From positions 1 through 64,000 of IMG/VR virus record IMGVR_UViG_3300008113_000016: a stretch of DNA of 64,000 nucleotides. The stretch is one strand, 5' to 3'. Under the pieces are notes generated by a model that saw nothing but the letters and a program-made list of their open reading frames with translations, made no database searches and was not told the DNA's origin. This document shows, piece by piece, positions 25,202 to 53,645 of this stretch (position 1 is the first letter of the stretch; each line of letters opens with the position of its first letter). Origin of the DNA: a virus. The position numbers and the translations under genes were made by a program.

Positions 25202-26952
25202 TGCCTGGTTTTTTAGATAAAATTAAGAGTGCTGCAAGCAAAGCAGTTACCGCAGTTAAGAGCGCAGCAACAAGTGCTGTAAAGGCAGTAATCTCTCCAA
25301 TCACATCTTTTCAGTCTGGAATGACAGTTGCAGCAGCACCTGCACAACTTAAAGCACCAGTTGCTCAAACACTACAGTCTTCTAAAGCAGCAGAGAAAAA
25401 AGCGGAAGAAACTGCAAAGACTGCTGTTTCAAAAAAGGGAGTAGACGTTGCTGTAAACCTTGCAAAAGAAATATCTGGAGTTGCTGGAGTAGGTAGAATT
25501 GTTGAGGCTGTTAAGACAACATCCCTTGACCCATTTAGAACTCAAACTGGATTTGGAACTGCAGGAAACTTAGCAATAGATGTTTTAGGTGCAATACCAT
25601 TAATTGGTGCAGCAGCAAAGACTGCAAAAATTGCAGCAGTTGGTACTGCTGCAACAGCAGGAACAGCACTAGAAAGTGTTGCAAAGATTCCAGGTGCACA
25701 GAGCGCAATTAGTAAGGGAATGCTAACTGCTGCTTTATTAAATCCAGCAGCAGATGTTGCAACAGCAGTCAAAGCACCAACATCTATTTCAAGGGTTGTA
25801 GACGGAACTGGATTAACAAATGCTGGAGAAAGAATAACAGATGCTGTTAGTGCTGCAGATAAAATTGCAGATGCTGCAAAGTCAAGTGCTGCAAGTAAAG
25901 CAACTAAGATAGCAGATGATGCAGAAGAAATTGGATCAGTTGGTAGAGTTGCAAAAACTCCAGTATTCAATCCTTCTTTGGCTTTAGATTCTTTTAAAAG
26001 CGAATCTAATCAAGCATCACAAGATGCAAAGTCTGCACAAGATCAAGCATCAAAAGAGGCACAAGAAAATGCTAACAAGGCAGCAGACAAAGCAGTAGAT
26101 GAAGTTAAGAGTGCTTCTGAAGATTCCAATAAAGTAGTTGCTGGAGATGAAAACTCATTATTTAATGAAGTTAATAAGGTTCAAGATGAAATAAAGAACG
26201 AAGTAGCAAAAACAGATGAAACTAACAAGGTAAATCCAACTAAGGATCCAGAGATAAGCAAAACTACCCTAGATCCAAACACTACTTTGAAACCAGTTGT
26301 AAAGCCAACTCCAGCCCCAGACCCTGACCCAACCCCTAAACCAGTTGTAGAAACCACTCTTTTTGTTCCACCTAAATACACTACAACAAATGAGCCAGAG
26401 ACTACAACAACACTTAGTCCAGAAACTACTATTTTTATTCCACCGACAACTCCTGAGCCAACTAAGTTTAAAATACTAAACCCCATTCCTGAACCACCAG
26501 TAATTGAGGCAGCCAGTTTTCCAGACGATGTTGTTAGAATGCCTAGCCTACAACAAAGAACTGCAGGTGCCTACGAGAAACTGTCCCTTGGTTTAGACAA
26601 CGATTTCCTCATAGACTCATTTGACTTTAACTCAGTAGACTTAGCCCCAACAGGTCAGAATGTAGTAAATGCTAATAGTATTGATATAATTGATGATATT
26701 GCAATGCAGTCAATTGTGTCAAAGCAGTTGCCAGATGAGGCTATTAGTGATAAAATTGTTAAAGCACCTGATTATTCTAATTCGGACTTCGGATCATTTT
26801 TGACCTTCAAACTTCAAAATGGTAAAACCGTTGCATCGAATGCTGCTGGACAGCAAACAGCAACCTCTGGATTGCCGTTCTATTCAGTAGTTCTTAATAT
26901 TCCAGAAACAGAGGGTGTAGTAAAATATGAAGTCCAGATTACGGAGGGATGA
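25201..26952 (+). CDS. tail-cluster protein with Ala-rich amphipathic N-half and Pro/Thr linker
   Basis: 583 aa, translationally coupled between tail genes. Confidence 0.7.
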   Translation: MPGFLDKIKSAASKAVTAVKSAATSAVKAVISPITSFQSGMTVAAAPAQLKAPVAQTLQSSKAAEKKAEETAKTAVSKKGVDVAVNLAKEISGVAGVGRIVEAVKTTSLDPFRTQTGFGTAGNLAIDVLGAIPLIGAAAKTAKIAAVGTAATAGTALESVAKIPGAQSAISKGMLTAALLNPAADVATAVKAPTSISRVVDGTGLTNAGERITDAVSAADKIADAAKSSAASKATKIADDAEEIGSVGRVAKTPVFNPSLALDSFKSESNQASQDAKSAQDQASKEAQENANKAADKAVDEVKSASEDSNKVVAGDENSLFNEVNKVQDEIKNEVAKTDETNKVNPTKDPEISKTTLDPNTTLKPVVKPTPAPDPDPTPKPVVETTLFVPPKYTTTNEPETTTTLSPETTIFIPPTTPEPTKFKILNPIPEPPVIEAASFPDDVVRMPSLQQRTAGAYEKLSLGLDNDFLIDSFDFNSVDLAPTGQNVVNANSIDIIDDIAMQSIVSKQLPDEAISDKIVKAPDYSNSDFGSFLTFKLQNGKTVASNAAGQQTATSGLPFYSVVLNIPETEGVVKYEVQITEG

Positions 26953-27827
26953 TGAAAGGCAAGTATAAAATTTACCTTGACGGCAAATTAGTTGCAGAGC
27001 AAGAAAACATCATTACTAATCGTGGCAAGAGCATGATCCTTAGACATATTGCTGGAACAGGTTCTCAGTTTGCTGGACAGATTGCAGTTGGAATTGGTGG
27101 AATTGCAGCCACTGCAAATGATGACACACTAGATTTTGAAATATTAAGACTTCCTATCAAGTCCTCTTCTTTAGACTCAGACTATCAGATTGTATACAAG
27201 GCTACTCTAGAAACAGAAGAAGAGTATCAGATTAAAGAGATAGGAATTTATCCAGCAGAACTATTTAGACAAAGAAAGAATATATATAGTCAGTTATTGT
27301 TTGATATGGATGTTACAGAAACTTGGCTTAAGCCTAATGGAGACAGTGCTGTGGTGGCAAAATCTAGTACCTATCCAAACGTCAGAGTGGGTTCTACGGC
27401 TGTTTCAGTCGCATCTGGTTCAACTGCATCAGCAGAAACAGTTTTAGATTTATCAGGATATTTAGACACAGATAGATTTAAGATGGCTGTTCAGAGGGTA
27501 AGCACAAACTCAACAGTTACGCTAGAATTTTATTCTGGTCAAACCTCTAAAGCAACCTTTACTGGGGTGCTAGACTCAGACTATGAGATCTTATCTTTTG
27601 CAAAGGCAACTGCTTCGTATACTGGCACAGTAGACTGGTCAAACATAACAAAAATTGTTATCTCCTCTAATGGTGGAGATATTATCGTAGATGGCATAAG
27701 GGTAGATGTTACCTCTGAGGCAACACCCCAATTCTCTTTAGTTTCTAGATCCGTATTTAGCACCGTTCAGGAAAAACCAAAATCGGTTATAATGGATATC
27801 GAATACTACTTGGACATTGACTTCTAG
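26949..27827 (+). CDS. minor tail/baseplate protein
   Basis: NIITNRGK..I..., IAVG.G, L.FEI.R, EIGIYP, C-terminal IEYYL. Confidence 0.65.
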   Translation: MMKGKYKIYLDGKLVAEQENIITNRGKSMILRHIAGTGSQFAGQIAVGIGGIAATANDDTLDFEILRLPIKSSSLDSDYQIVYKATLETEEEYQIKEIGIYPAELFRQRKNIYSQLLFDMDVTETWLKPNGDSAVVAKSSTYPNVRVGSTAVSVASGSTASAETVLDLSGYLDTDRFKMAVQRVSTNSTVTLEFYSGQTSKATFTGVLDSDYEILSFAKATASYTGTVDWSNITKIVISSNGGDIIVDGIRVDVTSEATPQFSLVSRSVFSTVQEKPKSVIMDIEYYLDIDF

Positions 27828-27835
27828 GATAAATA

Positions 27836-30800
27836 ATGCAAATAAACATTCCTGACCTAATACCTGGAAAAACATATAAAGTTAGACTTAGAGGAGTCAC
27901 CACGGATGGTGGCGTGTCTGAGTGGTCAAGAGTTTATGAATTTGCAGTACCTTCTAATCTTCCAGTTGCTCAACCAATTAACCCTTCAAGTATTGTTATT
28001 ACCCCTCAGTCTGATAAATCATTTTTAATATCTTGGGACAAGGTTGAGAACACAGGAACTCTTGTATTTAGGAATGGAAGATTTGAGATAGAAGGTCTTT
28101 CTAATAAAGGTCTTATCAAAGATTATAGAATTGATATTGGCTGGATAGGAGTTGCACCAAAAGCAAACTACAACCCGTCAGATGCGTATTGGTCTAAAAC
28201 TGCTTTGGGTTCCTTGGCTTCACGAGGAACTACTGCTGACGACACAACATTAATTCCTTTATTCTCAACAACAACAGGAAATAATAAATTTGTATTTAAC
28301 TTAGATGATAACAGTGCTGCATTTTCTGGAGCCAAGGGCGCAATTGCTATTTTTATTAGAGCAAGAACTGTTAACAATCTAGTACTTCCTCAAGACTCAG
28401 TTTATATTGTAGACACAAACAATTTAGTATACTCTGGTGGATTTTCTGGTGGCAATGCTCTTTCAATGGCATCAAGTACATCTACAGCAAATTGGCAAGA
28501 AGGTGGTCTTCAGTTATCTTGGAACCCTGTTGCTAATGCATCATCATACAAGATAGATATAACATCTACTTCTGGATCAACAAAATCATATTATTCTGTA
28601 GACAGTAATTTCTTTTACACTACAGCACAAAATCTTTTAGACTGGGGTGGAGTATTTAATCATCAGGATACTATTAAGTACAGAATATATCCATCAGATA
28701 ACTTTGAGTATTATTCTGGAACATCTGGATCTTCAGTCATATTGAGTAAGTATGGCATTCCAACTCAAGAAAATACAACTGCATTGTCAAATTTTGCTGC
28801 TATTTCAACCAACCTTAGACCAGAGGTTGTTCAAACTTCTGGAAAGTTTGTTGTATATCTGCCACTATCAATTAAGTCTTCTTTACAAACGGGAGATACA
28901 GTTAACTATTATTGGACCCAAGGAACTGTTGAAACTATTAATGGACAAGTTCAATATAATCCAGCACCAGTAACTAGAAACCCAAATAACAAAATCTCTA
29001 CAAGCCTAACCGTTGTAGAAGTTCCATCAGGTGCCAACGCTTCTCTTCAGCATGCTAATTATAGGTTTTGGTTTGGAATTGTAAAAGCAGGGTCTCAAAC
29101 AGAACAGTTTTCTCAAGCATTTCCAGAAGACTCTGTTGTTGGAATTAAGCCTGGACCAATTGTCGATGTAGATTCAGGATATCAACTTATTGCAGAAAAT
29201 GTAAAGTCTGGATCGTATGTATCTAATACTTCTGGATGGCAAATCAATAAGTCTGGTAGTGCAGAGTTTAATAACCTTCTTGCTCGTGGAGTTATTGTAG
29301 CAAAGAGCGGATCATTTGTTGAGTCCCTTAAGGTTGGTAATGCTTTAGGAAATCAATCGATTACATTAGATGGATCAGACCCTCTTGTTGGAAAGATATT
29401 TATTGGAAACGGTCAATACTTTAACACAGGAACTGGATTCTATGTTGACGGAACAGGTAACTTTAGCCTTTCAGATAGACTTGGATATTCACAAGCATTT
29501 AACCTTTTGCAGGTTAATGGAGGAATTAGGCTTACATATCCTTCTGTAGTAGAAGATAACTTTGGTGTTACCTCTGGAACTCTCTATGTTGGTAGTTCTC
29601 CAGTAAGTGGTTCAAGAATTACTCTTACCTCTTCAGGATTAAGATCTTTTGATTCATCAAACAATATAACTTTTGGAATTACTCCAACAGGACCAAGTGG
29701 TTCTGTAGCAGGATGGTCAATTACAGACTTAGACTCTTCTGGAAAATACAATGTTCTTGCATCTACTGCTTCTAAATTTTTCTTAGACTCCAAGCACTCT
29801 AGAGCCGTATTTGGTAGTTTTGCAGGAAGTAATAGACTTCAGATTACTGCCAACTCAATATCTAATGCAAACTTTCCAAATGTTAAACTAGGATTGGATA
29901 CAGAAAGTATCTCAGCACAGATTTCATCTGTTGTTGGTATGACAATTAACTCAAACACTTTCTCATTAAATCACGGTTCAAGATCAGTAAAAATAGGAAA
30001 CACGGGAGTAGACATTGTTGGACCAGTTAAACTTAATCTAAACAATATTGAAAGAACCACTGCTGGATCTACACCATACGATATGGTTGTTATGGACACA
30101 AGAGATGGTCAACTATATAGAGTTCCTTCAGCAACATATAACGTAACCACAGCAGCACCAGTATTAAAGAACACAGTAACTACAACAGTTCCTAATGTGA
30201 TTGGTCTTACTTTAAATTCAGCCTTGTCAACCGTACAAACAGCAAACCTACAAACAAGAATATCGGATACAACTATTATTACTAGCAATGCCTTGCTAAA
30301 CGGAGTCATTGCAACACAAAGCCCAATGTCATACACGTCTGCTGACGTAGGATCAACAGTTTATCTTTCTATTTACGAATACTCATCTTCTGGTCTATCT
30401 TTGGTTCAGGTACCTAACTCATTAAGTGAAAACGATGTTGTTGCTAAAAATACAATTGAGGCAATAGGATTAACATATAGAGTTAGAAGTTCAATTAATA
30501 CTACTAACCCTGCACTATATAATAAGATTGCAGAACAAGATCCAATTCCAGGAACATATGTAAAACCTGGAACAACCGTTAACGTTGTTTTGTATCAGCC
30601 AGAGGGTGCTGCAACAGTTCCGAATGTAATTGGTTTAGGACAAACTCCAGCAACTACAGCACTTACTGCTTTAGGTTTTTCTGTAACGGTCAACAATATA
30701 ACAACTTTGCAGTCAACACTAAACAATTTAATTTACACACAGTCTGTTGCCCCTGGAACAAGTTTAAGAGTAGGTTCTACAGTTGTACTAAACAAACTTG

Positions 30801-33800
30801 TTTATACAAGCGGAAGTCCAGCAGCCCCAACATCTGGAGTAGTTCCAGACCTATTTGGATACTCTTTGACGCAGGCTAATCAAAGAGCAAATACTTCTGG
30901 ATATGGTATTAGCCTTGTAGCGGGTGTTCCAACAGAAAATCCAGATCTTGCAGACAAAATTTATTCTCAGTCTCCTGCTCCAGGAACAAGTCTTACAAGT
31001 GGATCATCTATATCTGTTACAACATACAACCTAGTATCTTTTAAAACAGTTCCAAACGTTTTGGGCTTAACAACAACAAATGCAACCTCTCTTATTACTG
31101 CTGCAAACCTACAGGCTGAAGTTGTTGGAGATGTTGAGTACGTCGATTCAAGTATTGGTTTAGACTTTTCCTTTAAGGTTAAATCTATAAGTTCAACTGC
31201 ACAGTTAAACGGTCAATCTTATCCAAATCAAAACATGTACTTTTTTGTGGAGTCAACTAAATACAATGAAGCAGATACCCCTCTATCTGATGATGACTAC
31301 ACTTTATTTCCTCCATTTTCAGTAAAGATTGGAAATACCTATAAGGTAGATCAAAGCGATTCTTCAAATACTGGAAGAGCAATGTTCTTTAGCACTACAA
31401 CATCGGAAAGCAATGTTTTAACTCCATTTCAGGGTATTAGATATTATATTAATAATCAACAGGTACCAGACTATGCTGCGTATAAGGCAGCATTTAATAC
31501 TGCCACAAGCCGTTATGTAGTTATAACACCATCTTCTCAAACACCTTCAACATTTAAATACAGATGTTCTGCTGCAGACTCTAATGTTTTATTAGACTCA
31601 TCATCTCCAGACGCAGCAAAATTAACCTTAGACTCAGATAACCTAACTGGAACTGTTGCATATCAGATTCCAGTTTCTGGCTCAAAGATGATTACAGACA
31701 CAAAGATTAAGTTGTATAGATATAAAGTTGTTGGGGCAAGAGGAACAACGGCAGCACCTCAATTTTATCCAGCACCAAATACAAGTGGTTTAACAAGAAC
31801 TGACGCATCTTTAGTTGTTCAAAATACTAAATTGATTCCAGTGATTTATGAAACAAAAGTTTTGGCTACTGCTGGAACAGATAACTTTGTTTATGCTCAA
31901 AATCCACAGGCTGGATCATTTTTGGAAGAAAATAGCAACGTAAACCTTTTTGCGTATAAAGTTGTTACATCTTTCCAAAATGGTAGAACTATACCAAACC
32001 TTATTGGAAATAGTGCAACCTCTGCATTTACAGCCTTGAATGCAATCAACCTACAAAATGTTATTAATTACTATACAACTTCAAATCAATCTCTAGACAA
32101 TATTGTTTTTGATCAGTTCCCTAAGTCTGGAACAGTAGTTGAAGATGCTTCTACCATGGTAATAAGCGTATACAAGTTTGAAGAAGAGTCCACTACAACA
32201 ACTACGACAACTGCTGCGCCAACCACTACAACTACAACAACAGCAGCCCCAGGAACTGTTTTTGTTAACGCCCCACAACTCTTAAACCTAACCTTTAGTG
32301 CTGCAGTCTCTTCCCTGACCTCACTTGGTCTTATATATCAATCTGAAACCGTTAACACATCTAACCCAGACCTAAACAATAAAGTTTATTCTCAGTCTCC
32401 AGTAGCAGGAACATCTTTGCCAGTTGGATCAAGCGTCACAGTTTATTACTACACATATGTTGGTGCTACAACAGCAAGCCCAATTGTTACAACCACATTG
32501 CCACCAGCAAATACTGCAACGGTACCAAACGTTGTTGGATTGACGGAAACTCAAGCAAAGTCTACTCTAACCACAAATTCTTTTGTTGGTGTTACAACAA
32601 CAGAAACTTTGACAGCAGAGCAGTCATTAAACAATATAGTTTATGCACAATCTCCAAGTGGAGGAAACTCTGCTACAGTTTCTTCAAACGTTGCACTATC
32701 TGTTTACAGATGGAATGGAAGTACCCCCGCACCAGTTACTACGACAACAACCACGACAACTGCTGCCCCAACAACCACAGCAGCACCTACTACATCTGCC
32801 CCAGGAACAACCTCTGCTCCAAACCAAACATCTTCCGTAAGTAGTTTATCTCCTACAAGTGGGTCAACTGCTGGTGGTTATAGCGTTACAATTTATGGAA
32901 CTTTTCCTACTCCAATTACCAATATTTCGGTTGCTGGAACTAATATTGCTGTAAACAGTTGGAGCCAATCATCTTCTTCAATTTCTTTCCCAATGCCATC
33001 AAGATCTGCTGGTACTGTAGGAATTCAAGTCTTTAATGGACTGACCCCACTAATGTCTGAACTATCATTTACATATACATCTGGAACAACTGCTGCAACC
33101 AATGGACCAGTTCCAAACGTAGTTGGACTTTCATATGATAGTGCATTTACAACACTTTATAATGCTGGTTTCCAGGTTGATGCCTCTGTTGCCAGTACAA
33201 CTGTCGCTTCTAATGATCAAAAGGTTTACGCTCAAGCACCTTCTGGAAATAGCACAGCAACATATGGAACAACAGTTAATATTTATTTTTACCAATATAG
33301 TGGAACTACAACTGCAGCACCTACATTAAAACTTTGTACTCAAGCAGATGTTAGTAACATTAACAATGCTTGTACTGTTGTAAATACTTGTAGATCATAC
33401 GGAAACGGTGCTTCTTGTACAACAGACCAAACTACAACTACTACAACAACTACTGCTGCTCCTTCAGGCGCAACATGGTACTGTACATACTCTGTTTGTA
33501 ACCCATTCTCTGGATATTATTCTACACAGCCATCAAACTATGGAACTTATTCAACGGATCAATCAACAACTTATGGTGGTGGAAGTTCTTACACTAAGAT
33601 TGCTTGTAATACAACCGCTTATAATATTTCTGCAGCAGCACAGGCTCCTTGCGAGTCAGTTGCTACTACCACTACAACTACAACAACTGCAGCCCCTACT
33701 ACAACCACAACAACGGCTGCTCCAACATATTATTATGCTTCTTGGTGTTCATATGGTCAATGCTACACTGACTATGTTTCTACAAGTTGCGCTACAATGA

Positions 33801-34672
33801 GAAACTTAGCAGAAGCAGATTCTGGTGGATCGTTTAGTGGATTTACATGCTCTACATCTGGATATCCACCATGCCCTGCTGCTTGTTCTGGAGGTCAAGT
33901 AACAACTACTACAACCACAACAACAACCACAGCAGCACCAACAACATGGTATTGTACTTACTCTGTATGTCGTGGAACTTCTGGCGCATATATTACTAGC
34001 CCACAAGTTTATGGAACTTATTCTTCAAACCAAACGGCTACATCCTCTAGCGGTGGAAACACTACTAAGATTGTTTGCTATACAACTGGATACGATGTTA
34101 CAGCAGCACAGCAACCAGCATGCGAAGGATTTACCACTGCTGCACCAACTACAACCACAACAACTACTACATCTGCTTCTTGCGTTTGTGTATACTCTGA
34201 TTATGGAACATATTATTATTCACCACAGTGCTGTTCTTCTGGAGCACCAAGATCTGGTTCTTTAAGTGGGGTTACTTCTGGAGACTGCTGTCCTAACGTT
34301 AATAAGGCTACAACTGCTGCTCCCACAACAACGGCTGCTCCTACAACCACTGCTGCACCAACTACAACTTCTGCATCTTGTGTTTGCGTCTATTCTGACT
34401 ATGGAACATATTACTTTGCTCCTCAATGCTGTCCAGCAGGTGCACCAAGATCTGGAGCATTAAGCGGAACAGCATCAGGATCATGTTGTCCAGATGTTGC
34501 AAAGGCTACATCAGCACCAGCCACAACTACAACAGCAGCACCTGCTACTACAACCACTGCTGCAGCGTCTGGAAGATTCTGTACTTCTGCTAATATTGCA
34601 AACCCATCAAATCCATGCTACAGTACATCTCAGTGCAGTTCACAAGGAAGCGGTAGTTTATGTTTCGTATAA
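27836..34672 (+). CDS. giant tail-tip/fibre protein: Fn3-like N-term, ~10 PASTA domains, IPT/TIG, Thr-rich linkers, Cys-rich modules
   Basis: LIPGKTYKVRLR..SEWS (Fn3); SG.Y....SGWQI...GSAEFN (host-specificity-J-like motif); repeated VPNV.GL....A...L......Q.P..G..V..G..V.L; SLSPTSG..AGG..VTIYG. Confidence 0.85.
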   Translation: MQINIPDLIPGKTYKVRLRGVTTDGGVSEWSRVYEFAVPSNLPVAQPINPSSIVITPQSDKSFLISWDKVENTGTLVFRNGRFEIEGLSNKGLIKDYRIDIGWIGVAPKANYNPSDAYWSKTALGSLASRGTTADDTTLIPLFSTTTGNNKFVFNLDDNSAAFSGAKGAIAIFIRARTVNNLVLPQDSVYIVDTNNLVYSGGFSGGNALSMASSTSTANWQEGGLQLSWNPVANASSYKIDITSTSGSTKSYYSVDSNFFYTTAQNLLDWGGVFNHQDTIKYRIYPSDNFEYYSGTSGSSVILSKYGIPTQENTTALSNFAAISTNLRPEVVQTSGKFVVYLPLSIKSSLQTGDTVNYYWTQGTVETINGQVQYNPAPVTRNPNNKISTSLTVVEVPSGANASLQHANYRFWFGIVKAGSQTEQFSQAFPEDSVVGIKPGPIVDVDSGYQLIAENVKSGSYVSNTSGWQINKSGSAEFNNLLARGVIVAKSGSFVESLKVGNALGNQSITLDGSDPLVGKIFIGNGQYFNTGTGFYVDGTGNFSLSDRLGYSQAFNLLQVNGGIRLTYPSVVEDNFGVTSGTLYVGSSPVSGSRITLTSSGLRSFDSSNNITFGITPTGPSGSVAGWSITDLDSSGKYNVLASTASKFFLDSKHSRAVFGSFAGSNRLQITANSISNANFPNVKLGLDTESISAQISSVVGMTINSNTFSLNHGSRSVKIGNTGVDIVGPVKLNLNNIERTTAGSTPYDMVVMDTRDGQLYRVPSATYNVTTAAPVLKNTVTTTVPNVIGLTLNSALSTVQTANLQTRISDTTIITSNALLNGVIATQSPMSYTSADVGSTVYLSIYEYSSSGLSLVQVPNSLSENDVVAKNTIEAIGLTYRVRSSINTTNPALYNKIAEQDPIPGTYVKPGTTVNVVLYQPEGAATVPNVIGLGQTPATTALTALGFSVTVNNITTLQSTLNNLIYTQSVAPGTSLRVGSTVVLNKLVYTSGSPAAPTSGVVPDLFGYSLTQANQRANTSGYGISLVAGVPTENPDLADKIYSQSPAPGTSLTSGSSISVTTYNLVSFKTVPNVLGLTTTNATSLITAANLQAEVVGDVEYVDSSIGLDFSFKVKSISSTAQLNGQSYPNQNMYFFVESTKYNEADTPLSDDDYTLFPPFSVKIGNTYKVDQSDSSNTGRAMFFSTTTSESNVLTPFQGIRYYINNQQVPDYAAYKAAFNTATSRYVVITPSSQTPSTFKYRCSAADSNVLLDSSSPDAAKLTLDSDNLTGTVAYQIPVSGSKMITDTKIKLYRYKVVGARGTTAAPQFYPAPNTSGLTRTDASLVVQNTKLIPVIYETKVLATAGTDNFVYAQNPQAGSFLEENSNVNLFAYKVVTSFQNGRTIPNLIGNSATSAFTALNAINLQNVINYYTTSNQSLDNIVFDQFPKSGTVVEDASTMVISVYKFEEESTTTTTTTAAPTTTTTTTAAPGTVFVNAPQLLNLTFSAAVSSLTSLGLIYQSETVNTSNPDLNNKVYSQSPVAGTSLPVGSSVTVYYYTYVGATTASPIVTTTLPPANTATVPNVVGLTETQAKSTLTTNSFVGVTTTETLTAEQSLNNIVYAQSPSGGNSATVSSNVALSVYRWNGSTPAPVTTTTTTTTAAPTTTAAPTTSAPGTTSAPNQTSSVSSLSPTSGSTAGGYSVTIYGTFPTPITNISVAGTNIAVNSWSQSSSSISFPMPSRSAGTVGIQVFNGLTPLMSELSFTYTSGTTAATNGPVPNVVGLSYDSAFTTLYNAGFQVDASVASTTVASNDQKVYAQAPSGNSTATYGTTVNIYFYQYSGTTTAAPTLKLCTQADVSNINNACTVVNTCRSYGNGASCTTDQTTTTTTTTAAPSGATWYCTYSVCNPFSGYYSTQPSNYGTYSTDQSTTYGGGSSYTKIACNTTAYNISAAAQAPCESVATTTTTTTTAAPTTTTTTAAPTYYYASWCSYGQCYTDYVSTSCATMRNLAEADSGGSFSGFTCSTSGYPPCPAACSGGQVTTTTTTTTTTAAPTTWYCTYSVCRGTSGAYITSPQVYGTYSSNQTATSSSGGNTTKIVCYTTGYDVTAAQQPACEGFTTAAPTTTTTTTTSASCVCVYSDYGTYYYSPQCCSSGAPRSGSLSGVTSGDCCPNVNKATTAAPTTTAAPTTTAAPTTTSASCVCVYSDYGTYYFAPQCCPAGAPRSGALSGTASGSCCPDVAKATSAPATTTTAAPATTTTAAASGRFCTSANIANPSNPCYSTSQCSSQGSGSLCFV
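30185..33300 (+). repeat. array of ~10 PASTA-domain coding repeats
   Basis: units start VPNVIGL, VPNSLSE, VPNVIGL, VPDLFGY, VPNVLGL, APNTSGL, IPNLIGN, APQLLNL, VPNVVGL, VPNVVGL. Confidence 0.85.
32189..34565 (+). repeat. dispersed Thr-rich (T4-9)AAP mucin-like linkers
   Basis: TTTTTTAAP / TTTAAP blocks encoded by mixed ACA/ACT/ACC/ACG codons. Confidence 0.9.
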
Positions 34673-34688
34673 TTGAAAGGAGAAACAA

Positions 34689-35354
34689 ATGAAAGAAGTT
34701 CTAAGAATGCCTAATCTAGTTGGACTAGATGTTGGTGCAGCAACCCAAATGCTAAACAGTTTTGGTTTTCAAAATGTAGAGTTTCAGCCAGTAATTCCAA
34801 AAGATCAAAACTCTACGATTAATATGGTTTATCACCAAAGCGTACAGTTTGATACAGACATTAAAGCATTTGACGCTATTACAGTTTACTATTACTATAA
34901 AGAAGAAAAGCCCAACGAGTACTATGCTTTTGTTGGAAAAGACACATTGGTAAACACAGTAACTGGAATGAAGTTTGTTTCAGACCTTATGGCAAAAGAT
35001 GTTATTCTTTCTTTAAATGATCAGTCTTTAGCAAAAAGTGGACAGGCTCCAGAAGACCCAGTTTTAGGAGTAATCTATCAAGTTAAGCCTATAAGTTTTA
35101 AATGGTATTGGGCAATCAACGACATGACGGTTGGATATCAGCAAGAATTCCTTATAAAAAGAAATGGAATTTGGGCTTACATTATTGCTGACGATTTAAA
35201 AGTTGGAGACACAGGATTAAACTCAGAACTAGTAGAAACTCAGATAACTAGCAAGGTAAGAATAGATGCTCCAATTAGCGGATATCAATTGTTAATTGTT
35301 GACTCTAAGCCAATCATTACGGAGTCATTTGTAATCAGAACAAGAACGGAGTAA
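34689..35354 (+). CDS. PASTA domain + degenerate Hint (intein-like) domain protein
   Basis: MPNLVGL..GAA...L PASTA; AFVGKDTLV....G.K.V.DL...D.ILSL, IKRNG.W.YI.A.DLKVGD, I.S...I......Y.L Hint-like pattern. Confidence 0.65.
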   Translation: MKEVLRMPNLVGLDVGAATQMLNSFGFQNVEFQPVIPKDQNSTINMVYHQSVQFDTDIKAFDAITVYYYYKEEKPNEYYAFVGKDTLVNTVTGMKFVSDLMAKDVILSLNDQSLAKSGQAPEDPVLGVIYQVKPISFKWYWAINDMTVGYQQEFLIKRNGIWAYIIADDLKVGDTGLNSELVETQITSKVRIDAPISGYQLLIVDSKPIITESFVIRTRTE

Positions 35355-35357
35355 TTG

Positions 35358-36338
35358 ATGAAGAAGTCTATCTTCATACAAATTCCTTCCTATAAGGACT
35401 ACGAACTTGAACCTACAATTCTAGACTGTATCAATAAGTCTTCTGGCAAGTTTGATTTAAGGTTTGGAGTTTCTTTACTTGTTCATGGAAAAAACGATGT
35501 ACCAGTTCCAAAGTTATCTAATGTTCATGTAACTAGATTAACATTTGATGATGGCTATGGTGTTGGATTTTCTAGAGCAAGGGCTAACGAATGGTATGCT
35601 GGAGAAGACTACTACTTTCAAATTGATTCACATGAAAGGTTTAAACCAAACTGGGATCTATACCTAGTTTTAGAATTAGAAAGATTAAAAGCAAATGGAT
35701 ACAATAAGCCATTAATGTCTGGATACCCTCAGAATTATTGGTTTAATGATTATGGTATGCCAACATATTTTGATGATGACTATATAACTAGTTTTAAATT
35801 TGTAGATAAAAATATTACTCAATTTTCAGAAACAGGAGTGTTAGATCAAACTGCACACCTTAATGATAAAAGCAGAACAATCAGAGCAAGATCATCTTGT
35901 GCTGGAATGGTGTTTACTGTAGGAGACTACGGTCTTATAAAGCCAAATGAAAAGATTATGTTTTGGGGAGAAGAAAACCTACAGTCTGCAAGAGCAATCA
36001 CTAATGGATTTAGTTTATTTACTCCTCAAAAGAATGTTGTTTACCATCAGTATTTTGCAAAGAGTGAAGAGAACAGAAGCCACAAAAGAAATAAAAGAGC
36101 GCATGTTTGGTCAGACCTAAGAGATCATGGATTTGACGACTGGCATCAAAAAGATGAGGCTGGAAAAGAGTATCTAGTTAATCTATTTAAAAACTGGGAG
36201 ATAAGTCAAGAAGGACTAGGCAGCGTTGTAAGTAAAGAACTGTATACTCTATACACTGGGATAGATCACGACTTGCGTTCTTTGACAGAAGATGCTATAA
36301 TGGGAACTGAACCAAACGACTTATTAAGGAATATATAA
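35358..36338 (+). CDS. GT60-like glycosyltransferase (polypeptide/hydroxyproline alpha-GlcNAc transferase family, GT-A fold)
   Basis: SIFIQIPSYKD.EL..TI, GVG.SR..AN..Y.GEDYYFQIDSH.RF..NWD, KPLMSGYP, F.GEE...SARA.TNG. Confidence 0.8.
   Translation: MKKSIFIQIPSYKDYELEPTILDCINKSSGKFDLRFGVSLLVHGKNDVPVPKLSNVHVTRLTFDDGYGVGFSRARANEWYAGEDYYFQIDSHERFKPNWDLYLVLELERLKANGYNKPLMSGYPQNYWFNDYGMPTYFDDDYITSFKFVDKNITQFSETGVLDQTAHLNDKSRTIRARSSCAGMVFTVGDYGLIKPNEKIMFWGEENLQSARAITNGFSLFTPQKNVVYHQYFAKSEENRSHKRNKRAHVWSDLRDHGFDDWHQKDEAGKEYLVNLFKNWEISQEGLGSVVSKELYTLYTGIDHDLRSLTEDAIMGTEPNDLLRNI
36273..36301 (+). promoter_or_regulatory. promoter embedded in glycosyltransferase 3' end
   Basis: TTGCGT-17 nt-(TGC)TATAAT. 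Confidence 0.6.
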
Positions 36339-36935: not shown

Positions 36936-37190
36936 ATGAATAAAGGCGGATACGTTCTCGTAAACGCCCCTAATCATCCTAGAAGACATAAGGATGGAAA
37001 ATATTGGCAACACATAATTGTTTGTGAACAGATTCTCGGAAGGCAACTTCGCAGATGGGAATCTGTTCATCACATTAATGAGATAAAGAATGATAATAGA
37101 CCAGAAAACTTATTTGTTTGTTCAAGGAAAGAGCATGACAAGGCTCATAACATGCAACCAAATAAAAAAAGAAAGAATTGCAAGAAGTAA
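36936..37190 (+). CDS. HNH endonuclease (HNH_3 type)
   Basis: H..V.E..LGR.L...ESVHHINE.KNDNR.ENL..C...EH. Confidence 0.88.
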   Translation: MNKGGYVLVNAPNHPRRHKDGKYWQHIIVCEQILGRQLRRWESVHHINEIKNDNRPENLFVCSRKEHDKAHNMQPNKKRKNCKK

Positions 37191-37230: not shown

Positions 37231-38031
37231 ATGAGTAACGATTTAAAATGGATGCTGTCGTCTGATCAGCAATTTCCTTATCAGGACGATAAAGCCATTG
37301 AGTTGTGGTTTAAAGTCCTAAAATGGTTTAAGCCAGATGTAGTTGATTATCTTGGAGACACAGATGATCAGGCTTGTTACAGCAAGTATACTGAGGGAAG
37401 ATCAGCAGAGTTCTTAAACCTACATAAGACTGACAGTCGAGACCTTATTGTTCCCATGATGAGACATGAGGCGAAAGGCGCAAGAGATTTTTATACAAAG
37501 ACTCGTGAGATGCTTCCAGATGCACAATTGTTTTCTGCGTTGGGAAATCACGACGTAAGAATTTTTGATTATTTAGACAAAAAGTTACCAGAATACATTT
37601 CAGAAGTAACTCCAGAATCTTTGTGGTCTTTGGACTCCTTGGGATACGAATACATTTACTACAACGAATTGCCAAAGCGTCGCTTTGGAGATATTCACGT
37701 TCATCACGGATTGTCTGTTTCGGATACAGGTGCTGTTCGTAAAGACATGAATGATCTACAGATTTCTTTGATCCGTGGACACTCACATAGAATTGCTTCA
37801 CACTTACAAACATACGAGTTGCGTAATAATGGAGAGGGCGAAACTATCCGTGGATATGAAATCGGGCACATGTGCGATGAGAAGGGTCCAGGAATGAAGT
37901 ATACCCAACACCATGATTGGCAAAAGGGGTTTGCTATTGCACACATTGTAAATGATTATCCACATATTCAGATGATTCATATTGCACCAGATTATTCATG
38001 TGTTGTAGATGGAAAGGTGTTTAAGGTTTGA
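37231..38031 (+). CDS. calcineurin-like metallophosphoesterase
   Basis: SDQQ, LGD..D, GNHD, HHG, GHSH motifs. Confidence 0.85.
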   Translation: MSNDLKWMLSSDQQFPYQDDKAIELWFKVLKWFKPDVVDYLGDTDDQACYSKYTEGRSAEFLNLHKTDSRDLIVPMMRHEAKGARDFYTKTREMLPDAQLFSALGNHDVRIFDYLDKKLPEYISEVTPESLWSLDSLGYEYIYYNELPKRRFGDIHVHHGLSVSDTGAVRKDMNDLQISLIRGHSHRIASHLQTYELRNNGEGETIRGYEIGHMCDEKGPGMKYTQHHDWQKGFAIAHIVNDYPHIQMIHIAPDYSCVVDGKVFKV

Positions 38032-52525: not shown

Positions 52526-52598
52526 GCCTTTATAACTCAGTGGATAGAGTCACTGCCTTCTAAGCAGTTGGTCGCAGGTTCGATTCCTGCTAAGGGCG
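52526..52598 (+). tRNA. tRNA-Arg (anticodon UCU)
   Basis: GCCTTTA/TAAGGGC acceptor, ACTC/GAGT D-arm, ACTGC-CT TCT AA-GCAGT anticodon arm, GCAGG-TTCGATT-CCTGC T-arm; CCA not encoded. Confidence 0.95.
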
Positions 52599-52616
52599 CA
52601 ATGAAAGGAAATTATT

Positions 52617-53645
52617 ATGGAAGATAAGTTATATCAGATTGCTATGGCACAAATAGACCCAAACGGTCTTTGCAATTCAGGCTGTTGGTTTTGTCCAGTA
52701 GCCTATTCACCAAACCCAGAGTTTGCAAAAAAGACAATGAGTCTAGAATTATTGGACAGTATTTGTAAGCAGTTGCACGAAGGAAAAGGAGACTTTGTTA
52801 CTCCAAACTTTGATTTTATTTATACTGCACATTACAATGAGGTGCTTTTGTATAAGCACTTTGAAGAAATGCTTCAGATATTTAGAAAATATAATTTTAA
52901 AACAATGGTTCTTTCAAACGGAATACCTTTAACCAATCAAAAGGTAGATATTATTAAGCAATATCCAGATGTTGTTTATGGCATATGCTTGAATATACCT
53001 TCATCTGAGCCAGAACTTTGGGCACAATATACCAAGTTTAATGTAAAGATGTTTGACAGATTAATGGGTCAAATTCAATATGCTATGGATGAATTGCCAG
53101 AATATGTTACAAGCAATAGGCTAACTATTCAGGTTAATGGTGTTAACGAAAACTCTTTATTCCACAAAGGTGGATGGTTGATCATGAAAGAAGGAGCACC
53201 ATCAATTGATATGAACCCATTGAGTGGAACACTAGCAAATCAAGTAAAGGGTTTTCAAGATAGATTCCCAGGACTTCAGGTTTACGATAACCCTTATCTA
53301 GTTGATAGAGCAGGTACTCTTGCAGATATGGGGATTATATCTAATGGGCTAGGCATTCAAAGAGATGCTAACGCTCTAGAACTACTTGAGATTCCTTCAA
53401 CTAAAAAGGTAATTGGTTGCAAAAATGGAAGAGAAGTTGGTGGTAGAGCAAAGGGTTGGATTCATGTCAATGCAAATGGTCATATGTTCATATGTTGCAA
53501 TGACTATGAAATGCAGACCATTTATGGCAACTTAGAAGAAAAACCATTAAAGGAAATTTGGAATAGCGAAGAGCACTTGAGCATGGTTCAGCAGGCTTAT
53601 GACACATTATGCAGAACTTGTGGTGCTGCAATCTGGAGCGAATGA
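52617..53645 (+). CDS. radical SAM protein with SPASM/twitch domain
   Basis: CNSGCWFC; C-terminal C....G.M.ICCND......GNL....L.EIWNS...CRTC. Confidence 0.9.
   Translation: MEDKLYQIAMAQIDPNGLCNSGCWFCPVAYSPNPEFAKKTMSLELLDSICKQLHEGKGDFVTPNFDFIYTAHYNEVLLYKHFEEMLQIFRKYNFKTMVLSNGIPLTNQKVDIIKQYPDVVYGICLNIPSSEPELWAQYTKFNVKMFDRLMGQIQYAMDELPEYVTSNRLTIQVNGVNENSLFHKGGWLIMKEGAPSIDMNPLSGTLANQVKGFQDRFPGLQVYDNPYLVDRAGTLADMGIISNGLGIQRDANALELLEIPSTKKVIGCKNGREVGGRAKGWIHVNANGHMFICCNDYEMQTIYGNLEEKPLKEIWNSEEHLSMVQQAYDTLCRTCGAAIWSE

Follow-up and report, generated by a model that had tools for sequence, protein, structure and literature searches.

A phage tail fibre with poly-threonine linkers encoded near a GT60-type glycosyltransferase and its putative O-glycosylation

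Introduction

The CAZy GT60 polypeptide α-GlcNAc-transferases (Pfam PF11397) use two types of acceptor. Trypanosoma cruzi TcOGNT-2 modifies Thr in the synthetic peptide KPPTTTTTTTTKPP in a Mn2+-dependent manner (PMC3769586), while hydroxyproline (Hyp) is the acceptor in Skp1 (PMC8724618). TcOGNT-2 and Dictyostelium Gnt2 are Golgi type-II membrane enzymes that act on secreted mucins. In the Dictyostelium/Toxoplasma Skp1 pathway, by contrast, the prolyl 4-hydroxylase PhyA is followed by a soluble, cytoplasmic GT60 enzyme, Gnt1, which modifies one Pro of a regulatory protein. The metazoan and apicomplexan GT27 polypeptide GalNAc-transferases (ppGalNAc-Ts; GalNAc-T1/T2 and TgGalNAc-T3) initiate mucin-type glycosylation. 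In phages, glycosylation of virion proteins by phage-encoded glycosyltransferases (GTs) has been shown only recently, and only for coat/virion proteins of the mycobacteriophages Che8, Corndog and Myrna (Freeman et al. 2023, cited in PMC12363180). The modified sites are reportedly capsid and tail-tube C-termini. Our literature searches found no paper on PF11397 or GT60 in phages, on phage cassettes combining a prolyl 4-hydroxylase (P4H) with a GT, or on glycosylated Thr-rich tail fibres.

Here we analyse a locus of an uncultured lake phage (IMG/VR record IMGVR_UViG_3300008113_000016, 96.5 kb, 83% complete), within a window of 64,000 nt (positions 1 to 64,000 of the record). The initial annotation, made from sequence alone, had described three consecutive, tightly spaced genes: a tail protein with Thr-run blocks written in mixed codons, a PASTA/pseudo-Hint protein, and a GT60-like transferase. 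It read them as a candidate mucin-type O-glycosylation system with enzyme and substrate encoded side by side.

Results

The three genes lie on the + strand at 27836–34672, 34689–35354 and 35355–36338, separated by gaps of 16 and 0 nt, and the observation made in the initial annotation is confirmed. A promoter and terminator scan around the genes was no better than shuffled sequence, and we therefore make no operon claim beyond the tight spacing. A megablast search of the 8.5-kb region against 50,697 phage records found no match.

The first gene (27836–34672, P0001) is a single open frame of 2278 aa that follows the tape measure, minor tail and tail proteins and is the last large gene of the tail module. 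It encodes a tail-tip fibre, with a Phage_Tail_Tip domain (PF09327) at aa 410–493 and nine PASTA stretches (PF03793, 216.8 bits). The PASTA array spans aa ~785–1824 (30188–33307), with VPNV[IV]GL-type domain starts, and is likely peptidoglycan-binding. The distal region (33335–34663) contains small Cys-rich modules, with 34 Cys between aa 1834 and 2276 and a 198-nt imperfect duplication, strung on Thr linkers.

Eight linkers between aa 1452 and 2245 hold 87 Thr and comprise seven T6–10+AAP blocks, further TTT(T)AAP blocks, and one T8 linker ending in SAS. Linker 1 (32189–32248) reads STTTTTTTAAPTTTTTTTAA, and is followed by linker 2 (32729–32797; T8AAP TTTAAP TTS), linker 3 (33431–33475; T8AAP), linker 4 (33656–33724; T8AAP T6AAP), linker 5 (33899–33946; T10AAP), linker 6 (34139–34180; AAP T8 SAS), linker 7 (34316–34369; (AAPTTT)x3), and linker 8 (34514–34570; APATTTTAAPATTTTAAAS). 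All are encoded by mixtures of ACT, ACA, ACC and ACG, and Tandem Repeats Finder detects only weak, short, imperfect repeats in this region, which rules out a slippage-type microsatellite origin. In the whole 96.5-kb record, runs of six or more Thr occur only in this protein. The term mucin-like applies to the linkers, about 147 of 2278 residues, rather than to the protein as a whole.

The middle gene (34689–35354, P0002, 221 aa) is an ORFan. Its PASTA match is marginal (23.4 bits against a cut-off of 23.2), and its PT-HINT match (PF07591) falls below threshold (17.1 against 27.7). An AF2 model from a three-row alignment reached a pLDDT of only 32 and was not used, while the Atlas model (pLDDT 0.79) resembles Hint-domain proteins and aligns with Hint-domain clusters at TM 0.59–0.67. 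The protein lacks the catalytic nucleophile and block-B His, with no Cys anywhere and no His in residues 70–221, so that if its β domain is a Hint fold, it is inactive. P0002 has only two near-identical database hits and no homologue in any of about 150 related loci.

The third gene (35355–36338, P0003; likely start ATG at 35358) encodes a 327-aa PF11397/GT60-type protein (107.6 bits against a cut-off of 21, E 1.2e-30; phrog_24687), and all 25 database homologues carry PF11397. The motifs SYxDxEL (residues 12–18), YFQIDSH (87–93; D91 and H93) and GEE (205–207) are invariant across 24 homologues, as is H231. The AF2 model (pLDDT 85, pTM 0.89) predicts a GT-A fold, and two independent structure searches place polypeptide GalNAc-transferases first, not DNA- or lipid-modifying GTs. 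The Foldseek top hits (E 2e-8) are nearly all GT27, these enzymes filling the list down to rank 38, while VIA-align gives ppGalNAc-T1 (Z 20.0) and TgGalNAc-T3 (Z 18.6), with 256–267 residues aligned, against 16 or less for generic GT-A enzymes and 9.7 for the S-glycosyltransferase SunS. The protein starts directly with the first β strand, and neither the sequence nor the model shows a signal peptide or membrane anchor. NCBIfam returned nothing for P0002 or P0003, and a PDB sequence search with P0003 gave only a spurious weak hit.

To examine relatives, we first scanned with a pattern from the upstream tail protein (26949–27827), which found none, and then used the conserved metallophosphoesterase gene at 37231–38031, which also has no NCBIfam match, as the synteny anchor. 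The GT lies two genes after the last tail gene and keeps this synteny in relatives; in this phage it sits at a module boundary next to an HNH endonuclease gene. Co-occurrence of the GT with Thr-run proteins, proposed beforehand as a test, was strongly positive in the direction from GT to Thr-rich fibre. In 22 of 28 distinct phage loci with a GT at least 31% identical, a protein with a poly-T or (PT)n linker lies within 3.5 kb upstream, compared with 0 of 61 GT-less relatives that keep the same tail synteny (Fisher 9e-16, not corrected for phylogeny). Only 3 of the 80 closest relatives have the GT, and the two of them with enough upstream DNA both have the Thr-run/Cys-rich fibre. The link persists over at least eight GT lineages that are only 34–55% identical, with otherwise unrelated fibres, and the linker consensus recurs as Tn-[AQPGE][AGS]P. 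Most GT-linked Thr-run proteins also carry 6–38 Cys in small modules, but those of three related loci (L003, L005 and L025; L numbers denote individual loci in the comparison) have long Thr runs and only 0–1 Cys, showing that the Thr run, not the Cys modules, is the constant partner. There are exceptions: L009 keeps the GT but has a (PG/PE)n linker, and L022, L038, L043 and L045 show no clear Thr-rich linker.

One GT clade sits beside (PT)n/(PTPA)n linkers and always adds a PF13640 oxygenase, whose nearest solved relatives are prolyl 4-hydroxylases. No PF13640 gene is found in the 96.5-kb record of this phage, and none lies next to the GT in the poly-T loci. This division mirrors the two acceptor types known for GT60, Thr and Hyp. 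A radical SAM/SPASM protein (PF04055) is encoded further downstream in the window (52617–53645, + strand) and is 47% identical to the product of L017:9060–10001. Its homologues lie directly next to the GT in the (PT)n clade and in L004 and L005, although a link to the fibre in this phage is speculative.

The converse association fails. In-frame T6AAP linkers are common in IMG/VR phages, with at least 120 T6AAP loci found, 115 of these 120 in frame. Only 4 of those loci hold this GT, as do 2 of 49 whole records and 0 of 12 records that are at least 90% complete, and only 2 of 131 downstream neighbour ORFs are any kind of GT. Distant PF11397 homologues, covering 12 distinct phage loci and about 37 of the 41 bacterial loci, have no Thr-rich neighbours.

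Discussion

The interpretation in the initial annotation is partly supported. The enzyme is of the GT60 type and is coupled to Thr-rich fibres, but a three-gene system is not supported, as the middle gene is not part of the conserved pairing. We consider it probable that P0001 and P0003 form a fibre-modification pair of a freshwater actinophage. In this model, the late-expressed pair would act in the host cytoplasm, where the soluble, Mn2+-type (DxH...H) GT-A enzyme of the GT60/GT27 clan could meet the cytoplasmically assembled fibre and transfer a HexNAc, most likely GlcNAc from host UDP-GlcNAc, onto the Thr hydroxyls of the eight linkers. Dense O-glycosylation would turn the linkers into stiff, extended, protease-resistant bottle-brush stalks that space the PASTA domains and hold out the distal Cys-rich modules. 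Our analysis establishes the gene order, the family and (by model) the fold of the enzyme, its intact catalytic motifs, and the clade-wide genomic coupling to Thr-rich-linker fibre proteins. In the absence of biochemical evidence, glycosylation itself, the fibre as acceptor, Thr rather than Pro/Hyp as the residue, the donor sugar, the linkage and the physical effect are inferences; the genomic coupling to Thr-rich and (PT)n linkers is only indirect evidence.

An alternative, which we regard as unlikely, is that the GT targets a host protein, a cell-wall precursor or another virion protein and merely travels with variable fibre cassettes at the tail/replication module junction, a hot spot for morons, the Thr runs being unmodified flexible linkers. 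The abundance of Tn-AAP linkers in phages without this enzyme shows that such linkers evidently work without it, so the adjacency could be hitch-hiking within a mobile fibre cassette. The uncoupled distant homologues, the retention of the GT in L009 after loss of its poly-T linker, and the position at a module boundary agree with this view. However, coupling persists across divergent GT lineages with non-homologous fibres and is absent from the 61 syntenic GT-less relatives, the nearest folds are polypeptide-modifying enzymes, and the linker type co-varies with a prolyl-hydroxylase-like partner, which points to a peptide substrate. A DNA-modifying role is likewise unlikely given the GT27/GT60-type fold and motifs; the known phage DNA glucosyltransferases are GT-B enzymes. 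A Gtr-type seroconversion role is also unlikely, since the record has no GT2 and no membrane anchor is evident.

Glycocin-like O- or S-glycosylation inside or next to the Cys-rich modules is less likely still. While most GT-linked fibres carry such modules and a radical SAM/SPASM peptide-maturase-like gene accompanies the GT in many loci, the GT also pairs with Thr-run proteins that have almost no Cys, and SunS is a far weaker structural match than the ppGalNAc-Ts. Least likely is that the acceptor in this phage is Hyp, with the Pro of each AAP hydroxylated by a host or missing phage enzyme and then modified as on Skp1. The Thr runs end in x-x-P, the sister clade has a P4H-like oxygenase, and the record is incomplete, but no PF13640 gene was found in the record or beside the GT in poly-T loci, and the selected feature is the long Thr run, which matches the T. 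cruzi acceptor.

More tentatively, tailed phages of aquatic bacteria may carry two flavours of a eukaryote-like, cytoplasmic O-glycosylation module built on a GT60 enzyme, both making glycosylated stalks on tail fibres: a mucin flavour with poly-Thr-xxP linkers and the GT alone, as in this window, and an extensin/Skp1 flavour with (PT)n linkers, a prolyl 4-hydroxylase, the GT and a radical SAM/SPASM enzyme. The latter would be the first Hyp-linked glycosylation in a bacterial virus, extending a plant and protist hallmark to bacteriophages, and the SPASM enzyme might cross-link the Cys-rich modules in the reducing cytoplasm. If our main reading is right, a family known for starting mucin-type O-glycans in protists would also build mucin-like stalks on phage receptor-binding fibres. 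The 327-aa GT and a T8AAP peptide would provide a compact, soluble and directly testable enzyme–substrate pair, potentially useful for cytoplasmic glyco-engineering in bacteria. The reading would also explain part of the widespread poly-Thr and Pro-Thr linkers in environmental phage proteins, and glycan-coated fibres could affect host range, protease resistance and particle stickiness in lakes.

Comparison with known glycosylation systems

P0003 shares with TcOGNT-2 and Gnt2 the Pfam family, the DxH-type GT-A core and a fold nearest to the ppGalNAc-Ts, and its presumed acceptor, T8 followed by a Pro-containing tail, is almost the synthetic T. cruzi acceptor (PMC3769586, PMC8724618). Unlike these Golgi enzymes, it is a soluble phage protein that would act in a bacterial cytoplasm on a virion fibre. 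The GT27 enzymes are the nearest solved structures and also use D-x-H plus a distal His as metal ligands, but they share only 12–16% identity with P0003, which lacks a ricin-type lectin domain and is not a GT27 member by sequence. The Skp1 pathway likewise uses a soluble, cytoplasmic GT60 enzyme, and its two-step logic is mirrored by the P4H-like oxygenase of the related (PT)n clade. In this phage, however, no P4H was found in the record, and the target would be long repeats in a structural protein.

Actinobacterial and fungal cellulases also have Thr/Pro-rich inter-domain linkers, whose glycosylation stiffens them and protects them from proteases, but these are glycosylated during secretion by membrane mannosyltransferases, not by a cytoplasmic GT60. 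As in the mycobacteriophages, a phage-encoded GT beside structural genes would decorate the phage's own virion proteins in an actinobacterial host. The enzymes are not detectably homologous: a tblastn search of P0003 against 50,697 phage records gave four hits, all Xanthomonas/Stenotrophomonas jumbo phages at 23–25% identity. While the mycobacteriophage systems are reported for coat/virion proteins (PMC12363180), the target here would be the mucin-like inter-domain linkers of a tail fibre.

Genomic context of the fibre and glycosyltransferase genes

The window is the first 64 kb of a 96.5-kb IMG/VR virus record estimated at 83% complete. A siphophage-type late module comprising portal, protease, capsid, a 1975-aa tape measure with an M23 peptidase, and minor tail proteins is followed by a replication module of DnaB, primase, Pol III alpha and RecA. 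The capsid protein is about 37% identical to those of large Streptomyces phages, the record encodes a WhiB-family protein outside the window (70472-70645 of the record, + strand), and the fibre carries PASTA domains, so the host is very probably an actinobacterium. GC content is 36-42%.

The initial annotation described three consecutive, tightly spaced genes encoding a Thr-run tail protein, a PASTA/pseudo-Hint protein and a GT60-like transferase, and this observation holds. Genes 27836-34672, 34689-35354 and 35355-36338 (P0001, P0002 and P0003, respectively) are co-oriented on the + strand and separated by 16 and 0 nt. P0001 (2278 aa) contains a Phage_Tail_Tip domain (aa 410-493) and nine PASTA matches (216.8 bits). 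From aa 1452 onward it carries eight Thr-rich linkers holding 87 Thr, with seven blocks of T6-10 followed by AAP. As the initial annotation had proposed, the runs are kept at the protein level, since the Thr codons are a mixture of ACT/ACA/ACC/ACG and Tandem Repeats Finder detects only weak, short repeats. The linkers separate the last PASTA domains and a set of small Cys-rich modules (34 Cys between aa 1834 and 2276), and no other protein in the whole record has a Thr run of 6 or more. The interpretation that the three genes form a mucin-type O-glycosylation system is only partly supported, as described below.

P0003 is a PF11397 family protein with a predicted GalNAc-transferase-like fold

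P0003 matches PF11397 ("GlcNAc", the Pfam model of CAZy GT60) with an E-value of 1.2e-30. In an alignment of 24 homologues that are 34-40% identical to it, SYxDxEL, QIDxH (D91, H93), GEE (205-207) and H231 are invariant. The AlphaFold model is confident (pLDDT 85, pTM 0.89), and a Foldseek search of the PDB with this model returns polypeptide GalNAc-transferases (GT27) almost exclusively down to rank 38. An independent all-against-all VIA-align search places mouse GalNAc-T1 (Z 20.0, 267 residues) and Toxoplasma GalNAc-T3 (Z 18.6) clearly above generic GT-A enzymes (Z 16 or less). Grouping with DNA- or lipid-modifying GT2s, which had been set beforehand as a finding that would count against the proposal, is therefore not observed. 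The protein begins directly with the first beta strand of the fold and has no anchor, and is therefore, as inferred from sequence and model, a soluble cytoplasmic enzyme. An open frame of 321 aa encoding a second glycosyltransferase, of GT-B type (Glycos_transf_1, PF00534), lies at the very end of the record, outside the window (95546-96508, + strand), and could extend a glycan.

Most close homologues of the GT lie downstream of Thr-rich proteins

To ask whether the GT is coupled to Thr-rich fibres, we scanned IMG/VR and found 71 loci with GT homologues (loci retrieved in this work are denoted by L and a number). In the resulting tree, the window's GT belongs to a 36-row clade. Among distinct loci with a GT at least 31% identical and at least 3 kb of upstream DNA, 22 of 28 have a protein with a poly-T (9 or more T in 12) or (PT)n/(PTPA)n linker within 3.5 kb upstream, and the Thr-rich protein was never downstream. 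As a control, we fetched the 80 closest relatives through the neighbouring metallophosphoesterase gene (phrog_221; 37231-38031, + strand). This gene is 89-94% identical in the 80 best of 586 matching IMG/VR contigs, far more conserved than its neighbours (23-60%), which is unusual for these phages. Of the 60 relatives with at least 8 kb upstream, 58 keep the same order of tail, fibre and anchor genes. Only three of the 80 have the GT, and the two of those with enough upstream DNA (L096 and L131) have a Thr-run, Cys-rich last fibre protein. None of the 61 GT-less loci with at least 5 kb upstream has such a linker (Fisher p = 9e-16, not corrected for phylogeny).

The poly-T-linked GTs fall into at least eight lineages that are only 34-55% identical to each other, and their fibres share little beyond the linkers. 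The linker consensus recurs as Tn-[AQPGE][AGS]-P, with AAP found 9 times, QAP 5, PAP 4 and AGP 3. Loci L003, L005 and L025 have Thr runs up to 18 long with 0-1 Cys, so the Thr run, rather than the Cys modules, is the constant partner. Exceptions exist inside this close clade. L009 has a GT almost identical to that of L020, but in its orthologous fibre (L009:5579-6874 versus L020:7992-9509, 40% identical) the poly-T linkers of L020 are replaced by a (PG/PE)n linker, so linker types are interchangeable. L022, L038, L043 and L045 show no clear linker.

A related clade pairs (PT)n linkers with a prolyl-hydroxylase-like oxygenase

A well-supported derived clade of 15 GTs (100/100) has no poly-T. 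In most of its loci the upstream Cys-rich protein instead carries very long (PT)n or (PTPA)n linkers, although the L038/L043/L045 subclade shows none. In these loci a PF13640 2OG-Fe(II) oxygenase lies upstream of the GT, and most also have a radical SAM/SPASM gene directly beside the GT. The conserved cassette of linker protein, oxygenase, radical SAM/SPASM enzyme and GT60-like GT is found at L017:6964-10915, in L018, L019, L023, L027-L035, L039, L041 and L047, and, without the SPASM enzyme, at L015:7747-10912, and looks like a phage Pro to Hyp to GlcNAc pathway. The nearest solved relatives of the oxygenase by sequence are the Bacillus anthracis prolyl 4-hydroxylase, then PKHD-type hydroxylases and HIF prolyl hydroxylases, albeit with weak E-values (5e-4 at best).

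GT60 enzymes are known for exactly two acceptor types, namely Thr in mucin repeats, where the T. cruzi acceptor peptide is KPPTTTTTTTTKPP and the enzyme needs Mn2+ (PMC3769586), and hydroxyproline of Skp1, after prolyl hydroxylation (PMC8724618). Linker type thus co-varies with the presence of a hydroxylase, which is the strongest indirect argument that the linkers are the substrate. The window's own record has no PF13640 gene, which favours Thr as its acceptor. In some GT-less relatives (L078:7733-8314, L082, L110 and L111), a 2OG oxygenase-like ORF 28-32% identical to the L017 enzyme lies just upstream of the anchor gene, and in L078 and L082 it directly follows the last fibre gene. No GT and no (PT)n linker is present at these loci, so fibre hydroxylation without glycosylation may exist. 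The window itself encodes a radical SAM/SPASM protein (52617-53645, + strand, beside tRNA-Arg(TCT) at 52526-52599) that is 47% identical to the one next to the GT in the (PT)n clade. It lies 17 kb from the fibre and might act on the Cys-rich modules, but nothing links them in this phage.

Thr-run linkers are widespread without this GT

The converse association fails. A search of IMG/VR with a DNA pattern for T6AAP found at least 120 loci (L195-L314), and 115 of these 120 are in frame. Only 4 of the loci contain the GT, always 0.1-1.8 kb downstream of the Thr-run ORF. PF11397 is present in 2 of 49 whole records, and in 0 of 12 that are at least 90% complete. Of 131 neighbour ORFs downstream of such proteins in 53 loci, only two are any kind of GT. 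Thr-run linkers, often with Cys-rich modules, are therefore a widespread device in many kinds of environmental phages, including crAss-like and contractile-tail phages (crAss-like ring and muzzle proteins and baseplate genes are among the neighbours), and they function without this enzyme. The GT is an accessory found in a minority of phages with such linkers, and the data support the statement that this GT clade needs Thr-rich fibres, not that Thr-rich fibres need this GT.

The link also does not extend to the family as a whole. Distant homologues (24-30% identical) in 12 distinct phage loci have no Thr-rich neighbours, and the same holds for about 37 of 41 bacterial loci, mostly Proteobacteria. 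The four exceptions, all from bacterial MAGs, are L154, L157, L161 and L169. L154 and L161 are phage-like MAG contigs where the linker protein sits just upstream of the GT, while in L157 and L169 the (PT)n protein lies 3-4 kb away on the opposite strand. In L161 (L161:2-4620, a Planctomycetaceae TMED10 MAG contig), the GT homologue is 29% identical to the window's, is nearest to L051/L055 and lies directly downstream of an 1147-aa (TP)n protein, which may be an independent instance of the pairing outside the close clade.

The middle gene is not a conserved component

The initial annotation had included the PASTA/pseudo-Hint gene in the proposed system, but P0002 has only two database relatives (91% and 99% identical) and none in any related locus. 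Its PASTA match is marginal and its PT-HINT match is sub-threshold. The existing Atlas model resembles viral and bacterial Hint-domain proteins at TM 0.59-0.67, while our own structure prediction gave no usable model. The protein has no Cys at all and no His after residue 49, so if the fold is Hint, it is catalytically dead. P0002 is not a conserved component of the pairing, and other loci have unrelated small ORFs, a DUF7164 protein or the SPASM enzyme in that position. The DUF7164 protein lies directly upstream of the GT in some poly-T loci (L003:8943-9998, L025:9106-9999), and in L007/L008 a weak GT2-like protein with a TPR resembling the P4H peptide-substrate-binding domain sits among the fibre genes (L007:6481-7554).

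Proposed model and comparison with known systems

In our model, the soluble GT would use a host UDP-HexNAc late in infection, with UDP-GlcNAc, the peptidoglycan precursor, as the obvious candidate. It would O-glycosylate the Thr runs of the fibre before or during tail assembly, and the result would be stiff, extended, protease-resistant stalks between the PASTA domains and the distal Cys-rich modules. Our analysis establishes the enzyme family, its fold and motifs and the genomic coupling, whereas glycosylation itself, its substrate, the modified residue, the sugar and the consequence are inferred. We consider this model probable, but no more than that.

The main alternative, which we regard as unlikely, is that the GT has another target and hitch-hikes with fibre cassettes at the module junction. 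An HNH endonuclease gene (36936-37190, + strand) between the GT and the replication module is consistent with a recombination-prone module junction. Modification of the Cys modules is very doubtful, with the Thr run being the constant partner in L003, L005 and L025, and hydroxyproline as the acceptor in this phage is less likely still, given that its record lacks PF13640.

UniProt already auto-annotates uncultured-phage homologues as "Glycosyltransferase, GlcNAc", although our literature searches found no study of them. The most novel lead is the P4H-containing sister cassette, which lies outside this window. Phage-encoded virion glycosylation as such is established for the mycobacteriophages Che8, Corndog and Myrna (Freeman et al. 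2023, via PMC12363180). The system proposed here would be a variant of that process, differing in its GT, to which the mycobacteriophage enzymes are not detectably related.
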